A program made the translations under genes and the position numbers. The notes beneath the pieces are model-generated. The model was given only the letters and a program-made list of their open reading frames with translations, was not told where the DNA came from and did not search any database. This document shows positions 1-7,591 of a DNA stretch of 32,000 nt, piece by piece (position 1 is the stretch's first letter; the number at the start of each line of letters is the position of its first letter). The stretch spans positions 4,440,001 to 4,472,000 of the forward strand of contig NC_009664.2 of assembly GCF_000017305.1 (NCBI RefSeq), in the 5' to 3' direction. The DNA is from Kineococcus radiotolerans SRS30216 = ATCC BAA-149 (GTDB taxonomy: Bacteria > Actinomycetota > Actinomycetes > Actinomycetales > Kineococcaceae).

Positions 1-936
1 TTCGACAAGACCCAGCGAGCCGGGGCGCCGGCGCCGGTGCTCATCCTGGACATGTCCACCTCCGGGCAGGTCTCCTGGGTCTCCTCCCTGCTCGCCGGCC
101 CGGAGCAGGCTGCGGCCGTGGAGGCGCTGCGGGTGCTGGACCAGGACTCGATCAAGGCCGCGATCTTGCGCAAGGCGTGCCGCACCCTGAAGGAGGCCTC
201 CGAGTCCGCCTTCCGGCTGGGCGACACCCTGAACACGATGGTGGTCTTCGACGAGGCGTGGCGCTACGCCCCGCCGCTGCACCTGGCCGGCGACGAGGAG
301 ATCAAGGCCCTCTCGGCCGACATCGCCGGCTACTTCCGCGACACCCGCAAGTTCGGTATCGGCTGGACGCTGATCAGCCAGTCCCCCCGCAGCGTGAACG
401 CGGACTGCTTCGACCAGATGGCGGTGCGCATCATGGGCTACGGCCTCGGTGGTGCGGACCTGGCCAAGGTCGCCGAGCAGATGGACGACCCGGAGCACCT
501 GAAGCTGTACCGGGCCTTCGCCCCGCCGGACTCCACCAAGCCCAAGGTGTACCCCTTCATGGTGACCGGCCCCGTCTCGCCGCTGTCCTTCACCCGGGCG
601 CCGGTGTTCCTGGCCGCCTACACCGACTTCGAGACCTTCCGCAGCGACAACCATCCGTGGATCAGCCAGGCCCGCCGCAGTCAGGGTCTGCCGGTCCTGT
701 CCGGCGTCCCCCAGCTGAGGGGCACCGGGCCGGTCGTGGCCGCCCGGGTCCCACGCCCCACTGCCACGGCCGGTCCTGTGAAGGGTGCTGCGGGGACGAA
801 GGAGGCGATGGAGCGGGTCCGCGAGAACGCCGCCACCGGTGGGATCGCCCCTGGTGCCTTCGCCGGGCTGGCCGGCGACACCTGGTTCGGCGGGGGACTG
901 GGCAGCATCGACGACGACGACCCGCCGCCGTTCTGA
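1..936 (+). CDS. FtsK/HerA/VirB4-superfamily P-loop ATPase, C-terminal part (5' end lies outside the window)
   Basis: Frame 1 is open from base 1 (FDKTQRAGAPAPVLILDM...), so the listed 37..936 ORF is only the in-window tail. There is a Walker-B-like VVFDEAW at 241-261, followed by a RDTRKFGIGWTLISQSPRSV block typical of DUF87/HerA-like and VirB4-like ATPases. The last ~80 aa are Gly/Pro/Ala-rich and end in DDDDPPPF. Confidence 0.7.
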   Translation, partial: FDKTQRAGAPAPVLILDMSTSGQVSWVSSLLAGPEQAAAVEALRVLDQDSIKAAILRKACRTLKEASESAFRLGDTLNTMVVFDEAWRYAPPLHLAGDEEIKALSADIAGYFRDTRKFGIGWTLISQSPRSVNADCFDQMAVRIMGYGLGGADLAKVAEQMDDPEHLKLYRAFAPPDSTKPKVYPFMVTGPVSPLSFTRAPVFLAAYTDFETFRSDNHPWISQARRSQGLPVLSGVPQLRGTGPVVAARVPRPTATAGPVKGAAGTKEAMERVRENAATGGIAPGAFAGLAGDTWFGGGLGSIDDDDPPPF

Positions 937-1197: not shown

Positions 1198-2745
1198 GTG
1201 AGTGAGCCCGTCTACGAGGTCGGCTTCGTGGCCGATGCCCACCTCGGCTACGCCGCCCGGTGCGGCTCCCACCCGGCCTCAGGACTGAACCACCGGGTTC
1301 GCGACGGCTACCTGAGCTACCGCGCGGTCGTGCGGGACATGATCGCCAAGGAGGTGGACCTGGTCATCGACGGCGGGGACACCTTCCACCAGTCCCACCC
1401 CAGCATCGGGGCCATCGTCTGGGCCCGCCGGCAGATGGAAGCCCTCGCCGCCGCGGGCATCCCCGTCATCGGCAACACCGGCAACCACGACGCCTCGGCA
1501 GACCGCAGCAAGTCCCCGGCCACCGCAGCCATCAACGACCCCGCCCGCGGCATCGACTACGTCACCGAGCCCTACAGGGTCTTCGAGCCCCTCGAAGGTC
1601 TGGCCGTCCACATGATCAGCCACTACGGGCTGGCGCAGAGCGAGCGCCTGCTGCCCGAGCCGATCGACGGGGTCGTCAACCTGCTCTCTGCGCACGGGGC
1701 GGCGATGCTGCCCGGGCACGAGGTGTTCCGCTCGGTGGACTCCCCCGGGGAGGTGCCGATCGGGCTGGACATCCTGGCCGATGACCGGTTCGCGTTCAAA
1801 GCGCTCGGCCACTACCACGGCATGGGGGAGATCCTGCCCAACGTCTGGTACGCCGGCTCGCTGGTGCGGCGCGGGTTCGCCGACCCCGCGGGAGGTCGCG
1901 GCTGGCTGCTGTGCAAGGTGTTCGCCGACGGTCAGGTGGTGGTGGAGCCGCAGTACATCGACCAGCGCCCGCAGTTCGACCTGCCGCGCATCGACGCCAA
2001 GGGCAAGACCGGGGCGCAGGTCGAGGAGGAGATCCGCGCCAACCTGGAGACCGTGGACGTCGCCAACGCGATCATCCGCCAGGTCGTGGTCAACTGCTCG
2101 ACCAGCACACGCCGGGGCATCGACCAGCCGGCCCTGGCCAAGCTGACGGAGTCGGCGTTGATGTGGATGCCGGACTTCGTGCGCCCTCAAGCCTTCGATC
2201 AGACCCTTGATCGAGTCAGTGACCAATTGATCGATCCCGTCACCGGCCTGGTGGTCGACTCGGTCGGTGACGGCGTCACGGAAGCAGTCCCTGGAGCGGC
2301 TGCCGCAGTGGTCGCCGCGCGGACTGCCGACAGCGTCGCAGCGTCGCTGACGAGTGCCGGATCAGCCGATCTGCCCACGGTGTACGGATCCTGGGTGGAG
2401 GACTACGCGAGCGCTGTGGGTCTGGCGCAGGAGATGAAGCCAACCGTGATCACCGAGGGGATCCGGCACCTGAAGGCTGCGTCCCAGTTCGTCGAGACCG
2501 GTGACTTCGCCATCCCCGACGCCCGCGCCCGGCGCAGTGAACAGGAGCAGACCGCGGCTGAGCAGACACAACGTCTGCGGGCTGCAGCGCGGCGTTCCCC
2601 CTCTCAGGCCGTGGCCGGTGCAGACGTGCCGGGCACCAGCCCAGACACCAGCCCAGACACCAGCCCAGACACGAACCCAGGCGCAGGTGCGGATCCGGCA
2701 CCTGGGGTCCCCACGGACGCCGGCGCCGGGGAGGGGCTCTTCTGA
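1198..2745 (+). CDS. sbcD: Mre11/SbcD-family metallophosphoesterase nuclease with a long low-complexity C-terminal extension
   Basis: All six calcineurin-like/Mre11 motifs are readable: VADAHLG (DxH), DGGDTFH, GNTGNHD, ISHYG, LSAHG, GHYHG. The GTG at 1198 is preceded by AAGGAG (1183-1188), which makes it a better start than the track's TTG at 1180. The stop TGA (2743-2745) overlaps the ATG of the next gene by 1 nt. Confidence 0.85.
   Translation: MSEPVYEVGFVADAHLGYAARCGSHPASGLNHRVRDGYLSYRAVVRDMIAKEVDLVIDGGDTFHQSHPSIGAIVWARRQMEALAAAGIPVIGNTGNHDASADRSKSPATAAINDPARGIDYVTEPYRVFEPLEGLAVHMISHYGLAQSERLLPEPIDGVVNLLSAHGAAMLPGHEVFRSVDSPGEVPIGLDILADDRFAFKALGHYHGMGEILPNVWYAGSLVRRGFADPAGGRGWLLCKVFADGQVVVEPQYIDQRPQFDLPRIDAKGKTGAQVEEEIRANLETVDVANAIIRQVVVNCSTSTRRGIDQPALAKLTESALMWMPDFVRPQAFDQTLDRVSDQLIDPVTGLVVDSVGDGVTEAVPGAAAAVVAARTADSVAASLTSAGSADLPTVYGSWVEDYASAVGLAQEMKPTVITEGIRHLKAASQFVETGDFAIPDARARRSEQEQTAAEQTQRLRAAARRSPSQAVAGADVPGTSPDTSPDTSPDTNPGAGADPAPGVPTDAGAGEGLF
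2635..2670 (+). repeat. Three perfect in-frame 12-bp tandem repeats (ACCAGCCCAGAC) encoding (TSPD)3 in the Mre11 tail
   Basis: Counted directly: 2635-2646, 2647-2658 and 2659-2670 are identical. Confidence 0.9.
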
Positions 2746-5234
2746 TGATCACCATCGAATCGGTGGAGCTGGTCAACGTCCGCTCCATCGGCCGGGCCGT
2801 CGTCGAGCCGCTCGTCGACGGCGGAGTGACCGCCCTGAACGGCCCGCGCGGGGTGGGCAAGTCCACGGTCCTGATCGGCTTGCTGTACGCCCTGTTCGGC
2901 ACGACGCCCGACGGGGTACCGGCTCAGGCGCTGCGCCGACAGGGCAGTGAAGGTGAGGTCAAGATCGTCGTCACGTTCGTGCACGACGGTCAGCGCATCG
3001 TCCTCGAACGCGGCCTGAAGGGCAGGAACGACACCCCGTACGCCAAGGTCACCCTGAACGGTATCGAGCAGACCGTCGGCAAGATCAAAGCCGCGAACGA
3101 GTGGGTGATCCGCCGTTTCGGGGACCTGGACGCCACGGGATTCCTGGCTGCTTTCGTCGTGCGCCAGAAGGAGCTGGACGCGCTGGTCAAGGCCCGCGCC
3201 GCGGACCGGCGTGCGCTGTTCGAGCGCCTTGCGGGCATCGACCGGATGAGCGATGCCGTCAAGACCGCCCGCGCGGAGGAGACCGCCGCCAAGACCACCC
3301 TGGAGCACCTGCCCGGCTCCGCCGAGGAAGCCGCCGCCGCCCGCACCGACCTTCAGCGTGCCCAGGAACACGCCGCTACGGCCTGGAAGGACTTCGAGGC
3401 CGCCAGCGCCGCCGTCGGTGCTGAGGACCAGGCCCTCGCACAGGCCACCGAGCACTTCGAGGACGTCACGGCCCGGGTCCGCGCCCACCAGGAAGCCGCC
3501 CAGACCGCCCAACAGGTCGAGCACCACCGGGTCCTGACCGCCGAACGCGCCCAGCACGCCGCCCGCGAGGTCGACCGGCTCACCGCCGCCTCCGCCGGCG
3601 GCACCGCCGAAGCCGTCCACGCCGCCCGCGCCGCGCTGACCCAGGCTCAGCAGGCCGTCGCCGAGAACCAGGCCGCCCGTGCGGCCGCCCGCACGGCCAC
3701 CGCCGCTGCCACCGCCGACGCGCGCCGGGCTCAGCAGGCCCAGGCGGCAGCAGCACGAGCACGGACGGCGCTCACCGCGGCAAGCGCTGAGGCCGACAAG
3801 CAGGCCCGGCTGACTACCGCCGTCCCGGCGGACCTGCCCCAGCAGCTCCAGGCCGCCAACGCCCGGGCCGGCGAGCTGCAGGAACAGCGAGGGGTGTTGC
3901 GCGGGGAGTACCAGCGCCTCGAAGGATCCATCAAAGCCCTCAGCGCCACGGTGGACCCCACCTGCCCGACCTGCTCCACAGCCCTGGCCGACCCCCAGGA
4001 GCTGCTGCAGACCCTGCGCACAGCCCTGGACCGCGTCCGTGAGCAAGGGGTGACGGCCAAAGCCCAGCAGGAACAGGCCGCCGAGCGAGCACAGGCGCTG
4101 GCCGCGCAGATCGCCCAGGCCCAGCAGATCCAGCAGGCCGCCGAGTTCGCCCGACAGCAGCACCAGGCAGCGCTCGCGGCCGCGCAGGAGGCCGAAGCCG
4201 CCGCGGACTTGTTGCAGGCCGAGGCCGAGGCCAGCGCTCAGGATGCGCGGCAGGCGCAGACACGGGCGGAGGCGGCGGTGGCTGCCGAAGGCGGGGTACG
4301 AACCGCGTTCGAGGCCGCCTCGGCCAGGCTGCGCCAGGCCGAGTCAGCCGCCGAAGCCGCTGCGGCGCTGGCGCAGGCACTGGCCACGGCGGAGGAGGCG
4401 CAGACCGCAGCGGCCGCCGCGGTCACCGCCGCTGAGCAGGCCGCCGCGCTGGCTGCCGCCGCGGCCGTTCCCGACACTGAGCGGGTGCAGGCGCAGGCGA
4501 TGCTGACGGCGGCCGGTCAGCGCGTGCAGGAGCTGCGCTCGGCGATGCAGGCCGCGCAGGCCGAGCACCGGCTGGCGGAGCAGCAGGTCAAGCACAGTGA
4601 GATGGCCCGGGACCAGGCTGAGCTGCGGCTGAAGAACCGGGCCGCCGCCGCCGCGGAGTACGAGCGGCGGACCGCGGTGCGCGAGGCGCTGGACACCTTC
4701 CGCAAGGACCGGATCGCGCGCCTGGCTCCGGAGGTCTCGGAGGTGGCCACCGACCTGATCGCGCGGATGACCAGCGGCCGCTACGTCTCGATCGAGCTGG
4801 ACGAGGAGTTCACCGCGGCGGTCACCGACGACACCGGCCAGACGCGTCCGGTCACCTGGCTCTCCGGAGGCGAGGAGTCCGTCGTGGCCTTCGCGTTGCG
4901 GGTGGCGCTGGGTGAGCTGTGGGCCGGTCAGCGCGGAGGGCTGCTGTTCCTCGACGAGCCGTTCACCGCGCAGGACGTCGCCAGCCGGACGGCGATGATG
5001 GCCGCCATCCGGGACCTGCCGAACCGGCAGGTCATCATCATCAACCACGCCTCCGAGGCCACCGACATGGTGGACCTGGTCCTCAACGTCGTGCCCGACG
5101 ACGAGACCGGCGCCCGGATCGAGGGAGCCTCCGCGTTCATCGAGATGCCCGAAGCGGTGTTGGCCGGCATCGACGAGGACGACCTCACGCCGGGTCCGAT
5201 CGCCTCGGACGATCGTTCGGCGAGCATTCCGTGA
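2745..5234 (+). CDS. sbcC: Rad50/SbcC-family SMC-like ATPase with coiled coil and zinc hook
   Basis: Readable motifs: N-terminal Walker A GPRGVGKST (2841-2867); Q-loop-like VVRQKE; a ~550-aa Ala/Gln/Glu-rich coiled-coil region; a central CPTC hook at 3963-3974 (residues 407-410 of 829); C-terminal signature LSGGE (4860-4874); Walker B LLFLDEPF (4941-4964); H-loop-like IIINHASE. Confidence 0.9.
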   Translation: MITIESVELVNVRSIGRAVVEPLVDGGVTALNGPRGVGKSTVLIGLLYALFGTTPDGVPAQALRRQGSEGEVKIVVTFVHDGQRIVLERGLKGRNDTPYAKVTLNGIEQTVGKIKAANEWVIRRFGDLDATGFLAAFVVRQKELDALVKARAADRRALFERLAGIDRMSDAVKTARAEETAAKTTLEHLPGSAEEAAAARTDLQRAQEHAATAWKDFEAASAAVGAEDQALAQATEHFEDVTARVRAHQEAAQTAQQVEHHRVLTAERAQHAAREVDRLTAASAGGTAEAVHAARAALTQAQQAVAENQAARAAARTATAAATADARRAQQAQAAAARARTALTAASAEADKQARLTTAVPADLPQQLQAANARAGELQEQRGVLRGEYQRLEGSIKALSATVDPTCPTCSTALADPQELLQTLRTALDRVREQGVTAKAQQEQAAERAQALAAQIAQAQQIQQAAEFARQQHQAALAAAQEAEAAADLLQAEAEASAQDARQAQTRAEAAVAAEGGVRTAFEAASARLRQAESAAEAAAALAQALATAEEAQTAAAAAVTAAEQAAALAAAAAVPDTERVQAQAMLTAAGQRVQELRSAMQAAQAEHRLAEQQVKHSEMARDQAELRLKNRAAAAAEYERRTAVREALDTFRKDRIARLAPEVSEVATDLIARMTSGRYVSIELDEEFTAAVTDDTGQTRPVTWLSGGEESVVAFALRVALGELWAGQRGGLLFLDEPFTAQDVASRTAMMAAIRDLPNRQVIIINHASEATDMVDLVLNVVPDDETGARIEGASAFIEMPEAVLAGIDEDDLTPGPIASDDRSASIP

Positions 5235-5354
5235 CGTCGCCCGCGTCGAAGTCGCGATAATCAATAGTCAGGCGAGTGCGACGCCTGTGACCGCGGTCTC
5301 GCCCTCACCTTGCAGCCCAATGTTTCGCTGCTGGACCCGGACGGGGTGTAGGAG

Positions 5355-6227
5355 TTGATCGGCTACCCCTACAGGACCCTGCCGCGGTCGCTGCTGGCGT
5401 GGCTGACGACGGAGGCGGTGCGGACGAAGAGCCGCACCATCCCGCTGGGGGAGTCCCTCAGCGACTTCTGCCGCCAGCTCGAGCTGCCCATCACCGGGCT
5501 GCAGATCCGCCGGCTGAAGGACCAGGCCCGGCGGCTGTTCAACGCCCGCCTCTCCGTGCACTACGTCGAACACCTCGAGACCGACCCATCCCCGCGAGGA
5601 CAGCGTCGTCAGGTGCGTCAGGAGGCGGGGCAGAACCTGCTCATCGCCTCCCGCTACGAGCTGTGGACCACCACCCAGCGCAGCGCCAAGACGTCCGAGC
5701 TCGAGGCGGCCGCTGAGCCCACCGCGAAGCCGGCCGTGCGGCGTGGCACCAAAGCAGACGCCGCCCAAGCCGCCGCCCAGAGCGCTGCCCAGACTGGCGC
5801 CGCCCAGCGGGGTGCGAAGCCAACGGCAGTGACGGTGGAGACCAGCTTGCCCTCCAGCGTCACCCTCAGCGCGGAGCTGTACGAGGAAGTCACCCACCGC
5901 CCCGTCCCCGTCGACATCGGCGCGCTGCGGCTGCTGCGCGGCTCCCCGTTGCGCTTGGACGTGTACACGTGGCTGACGTACCGGATGAGCTACCTGCGCA
6001 AGCCCGTGGTCGTTACCTGGGAGCAGCTGCGGTTCCAGTTCGGCACCCAGGTCTCCACCCCACGTGGCTACCGGCACTTCCGGGCGGACTTCTCCGAGGC
6101 GTTGCGGTGGGTGCTGGCTATCTACCGGGAGGCGAAGGTGGACGAGGTCGGCAACGGGATCCGCCTGCGGCCCTCTCCACCGCACGTGGGACGTGGCAAG
6201 CGGCCCGCGCTGAACCAGCGCGGCTGA
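5355..6227 (+). CDS. repA: Plasmid RepA-family replication initiator-like protein (RepA_C type), possibly N-terminally short
   Basis: The blocks LPRSLLAWLTTEAVRTKSRTIPLGESLSDF and VPVDIGALRLLRGSPLRLDVYTWLTYRMSY...WEQLRFQFG match my recollection of the plasmid-encoded RepA family. The TTG start comes immediately after an in-frame TAG. The 3' end overlaps a 13-bp tandem repeat array. An Ala/Gln-rich low-complexity insert sits mid-protein. Confidence 0.7.
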   Translation: MIGYPYRTLPRSLLAWLTTEAVRTKSRTIPLGESLSDFCRQLELPITGLQIRRLKDQARRLFNARLSVHYVEHLETDPSPRGQRRQVRQEAGQNLLIASRYELWTTTQRSAKTSELEAAAEPTAKPAVRRGTKADAAQAAAQSAAQTGAAQRGAKPTAVTVETSLPSSVTLSAELYEEVTHRPVPVDIGALRLLRGSPLRLDVYTWLTYRMSYLRKPVVVTWEQLRFQFGTQVSTPRGYRHFRADFSEALRWVLAIYREAKVDEVGNGIRLRPSPPHVGRGKRPALNQRG

Positions 6228-6280
6228 CGCACGTGGCTGACGCACGTGGCTGACGCACGCGGCTGACGCACGCGGCTGAG
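6222..6280. repeat. Iteron-like array: 4 full plus 1 partial copies of a 13-bp unit GGCTGACGCACG(T/C)
   Basis: Counted directly: 6222-6234, 6235-6247, 6248-6260 and 6261-6273, with a partial copy at 6274-6280. The array starts on the repA stop codon (TGA 6225-6227). Degenerate copies lie at ~6181-6198 and ~6289-6300. An exact rotated unit (CACGTGGCTGACG) lies inside repA at 5966-5978. Confidence 0.85.
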
Positions 6281-6433
6281 ACGTAGGGCGTAACGCACGG
6301 GACGGACGTTCGTGGCCGACGCGTGGGGTCGAGAGTCGGTATCTCTTGCGTCCGGTGATTCTTCTGCGTTCACTGACCACGACGAATCTCCTCCACGGTC
6401 GACCACCCGCCCTTTGAGAACCGGAGCACCGCC

Positions 6434-7591
6434 ATGGCCAAAGCTGACCACGCCGTCTCACTGAACATGTCCGCCGCCATCACCGTCGGCTCCCGCACCG
6501 TGGAGGTGCCGGTACGGCGCAACGGCCGCCGTGTCGGGGTGCTGAGCATCAGCGGTCAGGGCGTGCAGTGGGACCCATCGACTACCCGGCCACCGGTCAA
6601 CGTCAGCTGGGAGGACCTCCCCGCCGTTCTGAAGTCGGCGACGTCCTCATCCGCTACCCCGGCGAGCAGCCCGAGGCCGTCCACCAAGCGCAGCGCGGCC
6701 CCTGCCTCCCGCAACCGAGCGGCAGCCGCCTCGAGAAGCACCGCCAGTACACCGGCCGGACCCGCGCCAGCTGACAAGACCAGCGACCGCAAGACCAGCG
6801 ACCGCGAGACCAGTGACCGCGAGGCCGGTGAGCGTGAGGCCGGTAGCAACGAGGCGGCACCTCAGCGCTCGCGCCCAGCGGGTAGGAGCGCAGCACGCCG
6901 CAAGACCGCCGGGGCGGCACGCCAGGCGAGCGGACGCACCGAGGCCACCACGAATGCGGTCACCTCCCTCTCCGACATGCCGACCACGGCAGGCTCGAGC
7001 GACGAGCCGCCGACCACGGCAGCCGCCACTGCTGAGGCGCTCTCCCTGGAGGCCTTCCTGGAAGGGGCCGCGCCGTCGGGGACACCCGCGACCACGGACA
7101 CCACCGTCAACCCCGCCGACACCTCCACCGCCGGCAGCACCACCGTCGGCAGCACCACAGGTGACGTGGGCAGCGGGCAGGTGCCGGGGCAGCAGGCGCT
7201 ACCTCTAGAGGGACGCGACCCCCTTGATCCCACCGGGGCCGGGGCTCAGATCAGTATCGAGGCCGACGACACACTCACCGCACTCACCTCTGCGCCCGAA
7301 CCCGGTGCCGAGTCGGACGCCACAGCGGCAGCGGAGCCGGCGAGCCGCAGGGCCGCGGCTCGTAGGGGCGCGAAGAAGGCCCCGCCGCGTCAGGCGGGGG
7401 AGCCGGCCGCGCGGGAGGTGACCTCAGCCCCTGCCCGGGCGAAGACCTCCACCGTCCCCGGCGCGGGCACCGACACCACGCCGTTGGATGCGCGGGTGGT
7501 GCGGCAGTGGGCGGCGGCCAACGGCATCACTGTTCCCCCGCGCGGCCCGCTGAGTACCAAGGTCCGGGAGCAGTACCTGGCCGCTCACTGA
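6434..7591 (+). CDS. Mostly disordered protein with an Lsr2-type C-terminal DNA-binding domain
   Basis: The C-terminal VVRQWAAANGITVPPRGPLSTKVREQYLAAH resembles the Lsr2 DNA-binding domain (mycobacterial ...[29 protein letters not shown]). GGAG lies 7 nt upstream of the ATG. About 270 aa of Ser/Thr/Ala/Pro/Arg-rich linker separates it from a small N-terminal ~65-aa globular-looking segment of unknown type. Confidence 0.7.
   Translation: MAKADHAVSLNMSAAITVGSRTVEVPVRRNGRRVGVLSISGQGVQWDPSTTRPPVNVSWEDLPAVLKSATSSSATPASSPRPSTKRSAAPASRNRAAAASRSTASTPAGPAPADKTSDRKTSDRETSDREAGEREAGSNEAAPQRSRPAGRSAARRKTAGAARQASGRTEATTNAVTSLSDMPTTAGSSDEPPTTAAATAEALSLEAFLEGAAPSGTPATTDTTVNPADTSTAGSTTVGSTTGDVGSGQVPGQQALPLEGRDPLDPTGAGAQISIEADDTLTALTSAPEPGAESDATAAAEPASRRAAARRGAKKAPPRQAGEPAAREVTSAPARAKTSTVPGAGTDTTPLDARVVRQWAAANGITVPPRGPLSTKVREQYLAAH
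6776..6850 (+). repeat. Five in-frame 15-bp tandem repeats (two perfect, then decaying) encoding KTSDR-KTSDR-ETSDR-EAGER-EAGSN
   Basis: Counted directly: 6776-6790 and 6791-6805 are identical (AAGACCAGCGACCGC). The next three units diverge progressively. Confidence 0.85.

Follow-up and report, generated by a model that had tools for sequence, protein, structure and literature searches.

We analyzed a stretch of 32,000 nucleotides of Kineococcus radiotolerans SRS30216 = ATCC BAA-149 (RefSeq assembly GCF_000017305.1, contig NC_009664.2, positions 4,440,001 to 4,472,000 of the forward strand), here called the window, which opens inside a gene for a HerA-like ATPase. [quoted passage not shown] Frame 1 is already open at position 1, with the presumed HAS-barrel region and the Walker A motif lying past the 5' window edge, and it translates without a stop over positions 1-933 to ...VLSGVPQLRGTGPVVAARVPRPTATAGPVKGAAGTKEAMERVRENAATGGIAPGAFAGLAGDTWFGGGLGSIDDDDPPPF. 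The C-terminal stretch of the fragment reads ...AGLAGDTWFGGGLGSIDDDDPPPF, and the reading frame closes in ...GDTWFGGGLGSIDDDDPPPF, the last Phe codon occupying 931-933. Third-position GC content in this frame is high (0.87 over 700-933, 0.94 over the whole open reading frame [ORF]); frame 1 is therefore taken as the coding frame. A preliminary description had placed the tip at 910-933, followed by TGA, and this is indeed what the sequence contains. The Gly/Pro/Ala richness that it noted for the last ~80 residues is also there, these three residues making up 46% of that stretch versus 26% of the remaining fragment. The features of the gene, with support partly from an AlphaFold2 (AF2) model and its predicted local distance difference test (pLDDT) scores, are:

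1..936, + strand: 3' part of the herA-like gene, 311 C-terminal codons plus TGA stop
241..267, + strand: RecA-like core, Walker B/catalytic segment VVFDEAWRY (columns D, E, A, W and R invariant in alignment A1)
568..678, + strand: last conserved core elements, GPVSPLSF ... DNHPWISQARR (alignment; AF2 of a homologue)
679..795, + strand: first part of the predicted disordered linker, SQGLPVLSG...GAAG (Pro/Gly/Ala/Arg-rich; low pLDDT; divergent among Kineococcus)
796..843, + strand: conserved short tail helix, TKEAMERVRENAATGG (AF2 of homologue P0002 and alignment)
877..906, + strand: aromatic-glycine element DTWFGGGLGS, just N-terminal of the tip (family alignment)
907..933, + strand: SSB-Ct-like acidic tip, IDDDDPPPF-COOH (family consensus; Kineococcus comparison)
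934..936, + strand: TGA stop codon of herA (sequence)

The tail is carried by a protein with a HerA fold

The window fragment is 92% identical to a K. aurantiacus protein (P0001) and 84% identical to a K. vitellinus protein annotated 'DUF87' (P0002). A Pfam scan of the fragment gave no match, and an NCBIfam scan gave weak matches to HerA. P0002 contains the Walker A motif GMSGSGKT, so that, with the Walker B segment in the window, both nucleotide-binding motifs of a RecA-like additional-strand-catalytic-glutamate (ASCE) core are accounted for; in full-length relatives, about 200 residues precede Walker A. In a Foldseek search of the PDB with an AF2 model of P0002 (26-sequence alignment, mean pLDDT 86), the top 15 matches were all HerA (9x1l, 7wrx, 8zir, 4d2i etc.; E from 5e-11 down), as were nearly all of the top 50, the exceptions being the related ATPases DndH and TdpAB. 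The best structural matches were Thermococcus kodakarensis HerA-NurA, Deinococcus radiodurans HerA, DUF4297-HerA, Sir2-HerA and Sulfolobus HerA. By its modeled fold, the carrier protein is thus a HerA. The preliminary description had spoken of a "HerA/VirB4-type ATPase"; the Foldseek matches and a NurA gene upstream in relatives (see below) bear out the first half of this designation, while a VirB4-type assignment found no support.

In many members of the family, an intein interrupts the HerA P-loop (GSGK | ALALD...THN | T), which brings these proteins to 900-1,300 residues (e.g. L001 7435-11467 and L029 10334-14272; also L004, L005, L015, L016 and P0004; L and P denote loci and proteins of our analysis). 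P0004 starts with MIPTHNT, i.e. the intein C-terminus, and a frameshift or an error of assembly has divided the intein region of K. aurantiacus between two frames. The window begins downstream of this intein site.

The tip is conserved on a divergent, largely disordered linker

Tail-less HerA relatives terminate shortly past the core elements equivalent to 568..678, and the final confident helix of the P0002 core model extends to residue 440. While the core was predicted with pLDDT ~95, residues 454-474 and 500-520 fell below 50, in keeping with the disordered linker proposed beforehand; in P0002, linker and tip are both predicted to be disordered. The tail is not uniformly featureless, as residues 474-486 of P0002, corresponding to TKEAMERVRENAATGG (nt 796-843), are modeled as a helix (pLDDT about 76). 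The (V)RENxxxxG pattern of this helix can be aligned among members at 46-50% identity, as can the aromatic-glycine element, which is WFGGG in the window and GFGDPL in relatives. Across the family, the 68 residues N-terminal of the tip carry a net charge of +4.5, with Ala, Lys, Gly, Pro, Thr and Ser as frequent residues. In the AF2 monomer, the tip is not docked on the core.

A word-indexed search returned eight homologues, with C-termini DDDDPPPF, DDDPPF, GLDDGLPF, DDEDTSF, ELPFSET, DDPFI and GDPFI. A profile search of 1.84 billion representatives yielded 430 relatives, the 150 best of which, together with the locus-encoded copies, were used for a census of long tails after the core motif GPxSPL. 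An exact Pro-Phe-COOH end was found in 40 of 56 long-tailed members versus 2 of 88 members lacking a long tail. Some of the long-tailed exceptions end near the GFGDPL element, just short of the tip position, and may be truncated gene calls.

The tip follows the consensus [DE][DE][DE/P]-[P/A/F/L/V/M/I]-P-F. Pro at the penultimate and Phe at the last position occur in all 43 tip-bearing members; Asp or Glu make up 49%, 67% and 58% of the residues at the sixth-, fifth- and fourth-last positions, the last of these being otherwise mostly Pro, and Lys/Arg are nearly absent from the last ten residues. The length of the tail after GPxSPL is kept at about 97-131 residues. Pro-Phe is kept down to about 30% identity; homologues devoid of an acidic-aromatic end, which the preliminary description had named as the finding that would make the tail an unconserved accident, are thus not what the clade presents.

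In five Kineococcus genes, the amino acid sequence GGLGSIDDD(D)PP(P)F does not vary save for a two-residue (D, P) difference in length, while the linker of the same genes has accumulated many non-synonymous changes as well as insertions and deletions. Base composition varies widely among tip-bearing loci (42-77% GC), and PPF ends are found in members with GC-poor-like as well as GC-rich-like amino acid composition of the core. Among all six-frame ORFs of at least 80 residues in the scanned loci (n = 2,560), 20 end in Pro-Phe; 16 of these have at least two acidic residues in the preceding five positions, and all 16 belong to the HerA family of the window. The tip is thus commoner in this family than chance would give. 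More distant HerA relatives, typically of about 600 residues, stop directly after the core. As the tail is absent from these and kept within the clade, it represents a clade-specific acquisition retained by selection. Judged from these alignments, the tip is conserved throughout the clade under purifying selection.

The tip matches SSB C-termini position by position

The E. coli SSB tip is DDDIPF. The window tip shows the hallmarks of an SSB-Ct, i.e. a terminal PPPF, DDDD upstream of it and Pro at the third-last position, and the likeness to SSB C-termini noted earlier holds position by position against the SSB-Ct consensus. Our SSB comparison set consisted of mycobacterial clusters, collected in a search with M. 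tuberculosis SSB; 101 of 120 clusters end in DDEPPF and 76 in SGSFGGGDDEPPF. Published SSB peptides include FGGGDDEPPF and WGSAPASGSFGGGDDEPPF (PMC7847540) as well as GADDEPPF (PMC3575820), and Streptomyces coelicolor SsbA ends in DEPPF (PMC3616714). In Quadrisphaera sp. DSM 44207, the last six residues of HerA are exactly DDEPPF. On a Rhodococcus plasmid (NZ_CP133327.1), HerA ends in ...TNRLDDDPPPF and an SSB encoded 25 kb away in ...AATSAASDEPPF (SDEPPF). The aromatic-glycine element preceding the HerA tip can be compared with SFGGG and DPWG in actinobacterial SSB tails.

Both kinds of tail thus end in Pro-Phe with a free carboxylate, preceded by two to four acidic residues, and have Pro or an aliphatic side chain third from the end. 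In both, the tip comes after a disordered linker in which an aromatic residue lies about 10-14 positions upstream, and each oligomer would present multiple copies. They differ in the carrier, a HerA ATPase rather than an OB (oligonucleotide/oligosaccharide-binding) fold, so that the protein bears an SSB-Ct-like motif and is not an SSB; in the linker, which is basic and contains a conserved helix; and in copy number, with six tips per presumed HerA hexamer compared to four per SSB tetramer.

Other C-terminal motifs do not match. β-Clamp-binding motifs are Gln-Leu-x-Leu-Phe-like pentapeptides (QL[SD]LF type), and neither DDDDPPPF nor the family consensus has Gln or Leu at the required positions. 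Likewise, hydrophobic-Tyr-any (HbYX) and Pup-type C-terminal motifs were rejected on sequence.

In three genomes, Kineococcus sp. SYSU DK005 and DK006 and Quadrisphaera, an SSB paralogue is encoded convergently downstream of rad50, at a distance of 86-99 bp in DK005 and Quadrisphaera and of about 1.5 kb in DK006. The coordinates of the paralogue genes are:

L006, 12353-12934, - strand: SSB paralogue
L004, 10383-11195, - strand: SSB paralogue
L029, 18358-18855, - strand: SSB paralogue

Their tips are weakly acidic (...RLEGAPF, ...RLENPPF and, in Quadrisphaera, ...GADDQPPY). The position after rad50 is devoid of an SSB paralogue in the window and in K. aurantiacus.

herA belongs to a nurA-herA-mre11-rad50 operon with variable partners

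Downstream of herA, the window encodes two further proteins:

1198..2745, + strand: Mre11/SbcD-like nuclease gene (Pfam Metallophos, NCBIfam Mre11; motifs DAH, GGDTFH and GNHD)
2745..5234, + strand: Rad50/SbcC-like ATPase gene (Pfam/NCBIfam; Walker A GPRGVGKS, signature LSGGE, Walker B LLFLDE)

The mre11-like gene starts with GTG at 1198, preceded by AAGGAG at 1182-1187, and the rad50 ATG overlaps the mre11 stop codon (TGATG). The Rad50-like protein has a CPTC zinc hook at residue 407. Upstream, the gene directly preceding herA in K. aurantiacus encodes a protein (P0275) whose AF2 model (pLDDT 87) retrieved NurA in all of its top 10 Foldseek hits; at the sequence level, Pfam gave E = 0.1 and profile searches of the PDB no match, so that NurA was identified through AF2 and Foldseek only. 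NurA adjoins herA in Kineococcus, Quadrisphaera, Euzebya, L019, L030, L033 and L034. The unit is an actinobacterial nurA-herA-mre11-rad50 operon, and the window begins within its herA gene. Across tip-bearing loci, the partners of herA vary:

Kineococcus, Quadrisphaera: nurA-herA-mre11-rad50, contiguous
Mycobacteriales plasmids and skin-metagenome contig L019: the four genes all within about 10 kb
Euzebya, L030, L033, L034: nurA-herA only, with no Mre11/Rad50 in the sequence fetched (L034: upstream flank only)
L014, L016: a different protein of ~300 residues upstream in place of NurA
L007, L016: no Mre11/Rad50 within about 6-10 kb

Several observations on these genes are recorded here in their own right. 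The spacer between herA and mre11 (937-1197) is unusually long (261 nt, compared to 112 nt or no spacer in relatives) and contains a 17-nt inverted repeat (996-1012/1077-1093) and a tandem 15-nt repeat (1127-1156); a search for a terminator or a sigma-70 promoter in 600-1400 gave no match. The Mre11-like protein has a long disordered low-complexity tail of its own (2440-2745), Pro/Ala/Gly-rich with TSPD repeated three times and ending in ...GAGEGLF. Within the Kineococcus/Quadrisphaera group, the Mre11-like proteins end in GEGLF, GEELF, EETPW or QEVPW; such ends are lacking from L002, L019 and the plasmid copies. This acidic-aromatic end may be a second docking tip of the operon. In the Mre11-like proteins of Rhodococcus/Corynebacterium plasmids (L023 12730-14079; L024 12510-13838), Cys replaces the first catalytic Asp (GCAH/GCQH vs DAH).

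The ~300-residue protein upstream of herA in L014 (8475-9371) and L016 (8601-9485) shows, by eye, a PD-(D/E)xK-like motif (GTADF...D.K.G). Pfam and PDB searches with it gave no match, and a relationship to NurA was rejected (hhalign probability 0.1%); this subclade would have undergone a nuclease swap upstream of herA. In Quadrisphaera, a gene for a 900-residue RecG-like helicase (L029 6302-9004; wedge, DEAD, Helicase_C and RecG_dom3_C domains) shares 4 nt with the start of nurA and appears to belong to the operon. On the large metagenomic contigs L030, L031, L032 and L019, the NurA-like gene directly follows a gene for a class A penicillin-binding protein (PASTA-containing where intact), amid genes of nucleotide metabolism (ribonucleotide reductase, thymidine kinase, NT5C, dCTP deaminase); L031 and L032 have no herA near the NurA-like gene. 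Actinoplanes utahensis (L008 3754-9673) carries the order DruA - NurA-like - HerA (ending in DDFI) - phospholipase D (PLD)-like - 1,286-residue protein, and this sister-clade locus looks like a defense island.

The family has few loci in species genomes and occurs on large plasmids

A search of 185,579 species genomes recovered only 11 loci, namely from six Kineococcus species (one a 394-bp fragment), Actinoplanes utahensis, a 'Polynucleobacter' metagenome-assembled genome (MAG), a Gemmatimonadales MAG and weak archaeal hits. IMG/VR and GenBank phages contained no match to the HerA family, and a phage origin was rejected on this basis. Large actinobacterial plasmids do carry it, i.e. three of Rhodococcus and those of Corynebacterium crudilactis, Dietzia and Euzebya pacifica. 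All plasmid-borne copies end in Pro-Phe, all but that of Euzebya (PFPF) in PPF, and they lie near dnaG, repA, dnaB-like, ruvA, rusA and ssb genes. In the window, the rad50 gene is followed by:

5355-6227, + strand: ORF with a RepA_C domain (Pfam E = 8e-14; third-position GC 0.91)
6434-7591, + strand: 385-residue protein with a C-terminal Lsr2 DNA-binding domain, following the RepA-like ORF

A replication gene of plasmid type directly behind rad50 suggests that a plasmid-like element has integrated here. A 397-residue antisense ORF (5268-6461, - strand) that overlaps the RepA_C ORF had no matches and is probably spurious. The remaining window encodes ordinary chromosomal metabolism and shows no GC anomaly. 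Assignment to a known defense system was rejected: the PADLOC similarities were weak and generic (HerA, mad8, mad3, LmuB), and the neighbors are NurA, Mre11 and Rad50.

A proposed docking module for SSB-tail-binding proteins

As the motif has the sequence of a bacterial SSB C-terminal tip, an SSB-Ct mechanism appears most likely. We therefore lean, with considerable reserve, toward the view that the tail would be a functional SSB-Ct-type docking module on a HerA translocase. This module would consist of a mostly basic, disordered linker of ~70-90 residues, one short helix, the aromatic-glycine element and a C-terminal [D/E]2-4-(P/hydrophobic)-P-F-COOH. Its carrier would be a presumed hexameric DNA translocase working with NurA and, in the organism of the window, also with the Mre11-like and Rad50-like proteins. 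The terminal Phe would insert its side chain and its free α-carboxylate into a hydrophobic, basic pocket on a partner, with the acidic run lying along the partner's basic ridge. In the presumed hexamer, six flexible tethers could then couple a NurA-HerA resection motor to proteins that read SSB tails; alternatively, the hexamer might compete with SSB for these proteins.

We infer both the binding of the tip to SSB-Ct-type pockets and the identity of the pocket-bearing proteins; RecJ, RecQ, RecG, RecO, PriA, SbcC-type proteins and ClpX are candidates, encoded by the host or on the same mobile element. The chemistry of SSB-Ct pockets is established for RecJ (PMC4846377), ExoI (PMC3159472) and RecG (PMC10164576), and E. 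coli RecG requires the SSB-Ct (PMC10164576). Circumstantial support comes from Bacillus subtilis, in which SbcC needs the SSB C-terminus for its localization (PMC3000357), from D. radiodurans, whose HerA both binds RecJ and stimulates it (PMC4663267), and from Sulfolobus tokodaii, for which binding of NurA to SSB is cited in PMC8910471. The RecG-like gene that overlaps nurA in Quadrisphaera and the gp4 tail of phage T7 (see below) add to this.

Three points weigh against this view. The C-termini of the sister clade, DDFI, DDPFI or DDLFV, extend one additional residue beyond the Phe and, from their sequences, would not present a Phe α-carboxylate. The linker is net basic and harbors a conserved helix, unlike SSB linkers, which could mean a DNA contact or an inter-subunit brace. 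Finally, in mycobacteria the SSB-Ct is not bound by the cognate RecO (PMC3575820), and the actinobacterial SSB interactome is therefore not simply that of E. coli.

Instead of an SSB-Ct pocket, the tip might dock on a protein of its own cluster via a pocket not shared with SSB, the likeness to SSB-Ct then being convergent; the NurA dimer, the Mre11- or Rad50-like protein and, where present, the SSB paralogue or the RecG-like helicase are conceivable receptors. The tight linkage of the genes in Kineococcus, Quadrisphaera and Mycobacteriales plasmids would fit such a private tether, as would a reported archaeal HerA-Mre11 interaction (PMC2288612), and the acidic-aromatic ends of the Mre11-like proteins (GEGLF, GEELF, EETPW, QEVPW) suggest a receptor shared within the module. 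However, Pro-Phe-COOH is invariant across all partner arrangements, including loci at which no Mre11/Rad50 gene was found within about 6-10 kb of a tip-bearing herA (L007, L016, L026, L030, L033) and those at which the unrelated ~300-residue protein replaces NurA (L014, L016). HerA alone is always present, although partners could still be encoded elsewhere in these genomes. With that proviso, a receptor private to Mre11-Rad50 or NurA is unlikely, the comparison of loci arguing in particular against Mre11-Rad50 as an obligatory receptor, and we regard docking within the module as an unlikely explanation overall. The receptor candidates then left are HerA itself and proteins whose SSB-Ct pockets are generic.

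A tip directed at HerA itself could act as a C-terminal brace on a neighboring protomer, or its acidic residues could mimic nucleic acid in the DNA channel or toward the basic linker. That HerA is the sole protein common to every tip-bearing locus speaks for this possibility, and the basic linker, combined with the acidic tip and the conserved helix of the tail, would suit an autoinhibitory switch. There are precedents in the Sulfolobus HerA brace (PMC9960219) and in acidic tips acting on their own cores, as in Hfq (PMC5606850), SSB and T7 gp2.5 (the last cited in PMC3616714). However, strict conservation of a terminal Pro-Phe is seen more typically in peptides that bind a pocket than in DNA mimics. 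Two further observations count weakly against a self-directed tip: it was not docked in cis in the AF2 monomer (pLDDT <50), and a scan for core positions at which a basic or hydrophobic residue sets the Pro-Phe clade apart gave only R249, K446 and F497 (P0017 numbering), which do not amount to a clear pocket signature. We consider a self-directed tip rather improbable.

A non-functional, compositionally biased read-through tail is very hard to uphold and effectively refuted by the conservation data, since, although high-GC genomes readily yield Gly/Pro/Ala-rich low-complexity tails and PPF could stem in part from GC-rich codons, the tip is conserved at 42-77% GC, has its Pro-Phe on 40 of the 56 members with a long tail, at identities as low as about 30%, ends tails held to a length of about 97-131 residues and is invariant where the linker diverges.

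Starting from an SSB-Ct-type docking module, a broader and quite tentative picture, which we hold to be doubtful, is that these largely plasmid- or island-borne NurA-HerA machines, with or without Mre11-Rad50, might use six SSB-tip mimics per hexamer to join, or compete for, the SSB interactome while processing DNA ends. On this picture, the module would be portable between hosts, in some elements it may cooperate with its own SSB paralogue in a two-tail hand-off like that of T7, and no earlier case would be on record of a cellular or plasmid motor other than an SSB that mimics the SSB-Ct.

Relation to known systems

A precedent is found in phage T7, where the tail of the helicase gp4 (DTDF) resembles that of the SSB gp2.5 (PMC12339929). 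As in T7, a hexameric ring motor would bear an acidic, Phe-terminated tail like that of its own system's SSB, and three genomes have, next to the HerA operon, a gene for an SSB paralogue whose tip is PF or PPY. According to work of the Richardson laboratory, the gp4 and gp2.5 tails are reportedly functionally interchangeable. The systems differ in the motor (HerA/FtsK vs a DnaB-like superfamily 4 ATPase), in the process (end resection vs replication) and in that the T7 tail binds T7 DNA polymerase.

With archaeal HerA-NurA-Mre11-Rad50 systems and Deinococcus NurA-HerA, the family shares the HerA and NurA folds (Foldseek) and, with the archaeal operon, the Mre11/Rad50 motifs and the gene order nurA-herA-mre11-rad50. 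Sequence similarity to these systems is very low (PDB HerA, E about 3e-5; Pfam NurA, E = 0.1), and the hosts are Actinomycetota, in which the genes often lie on megaplasmids or beside plasmid-type genes. Bacterial NurA-HerA has been stated to occur in few bacteria, e.g. Deinococcus-Thermus, and characterized HerAs have a short C-terminal protrusion only (PMC9960219). The brace of Sulfolobus HerA likewise extends past the RecA-like core, contacting another subunit; it is short and ordered, whereas the actinobacterial tail comprises 70-90 residues, is predicted to be disordered and ends in Pro-Phe-COOH. The HerA fold is also found in the anti-phage systems Sir2-HerA/Nezha, DUF4297-HerA and TdpAB, and the Actinoplanes sister-clade member lies beside DruA and a PLD-like gene. 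In contrast to those systems, there is no Sir2 or DUF4297 effector, the partners being NurA, Mre11 and Rad50.

HerA-NurA-Mre11-Rad50, the SSB-Ct and the T7 precedent are thus already known. In line with the preliminary description, which was not aware of this feature in HerA-family proteins, a full-text literature search yielded no description of an SSB-like tip on HerA, nor one of SSB-Ct mimicry by a non-SSB bacterial protein.

Significance

Even for archaea, the coupling of HerA-NurA to Mre11-Rad50, to SSB and to recombination proteins acting downstream has yet to be explained, and bacterial HerA-NurA has barely been studied beyond Deinococcus-Thermus. The present analysis describes a clade of NurA-HerA-Mre11-Rad50 systems, from actinobacteria and megaplasmids, about which little is known, and a conserved, peptide-sized handle with known binding chemistry offers a direct experimental route to the partner. 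If the tip does act as an SSB-Ct-type docking peptide, mimicry of SSB tails, so far a matter of SSBs and of phage T7, would include a translocase of cells or plasmids. It would also suggest in what way repair modules that move horizontally become linked to a new host.

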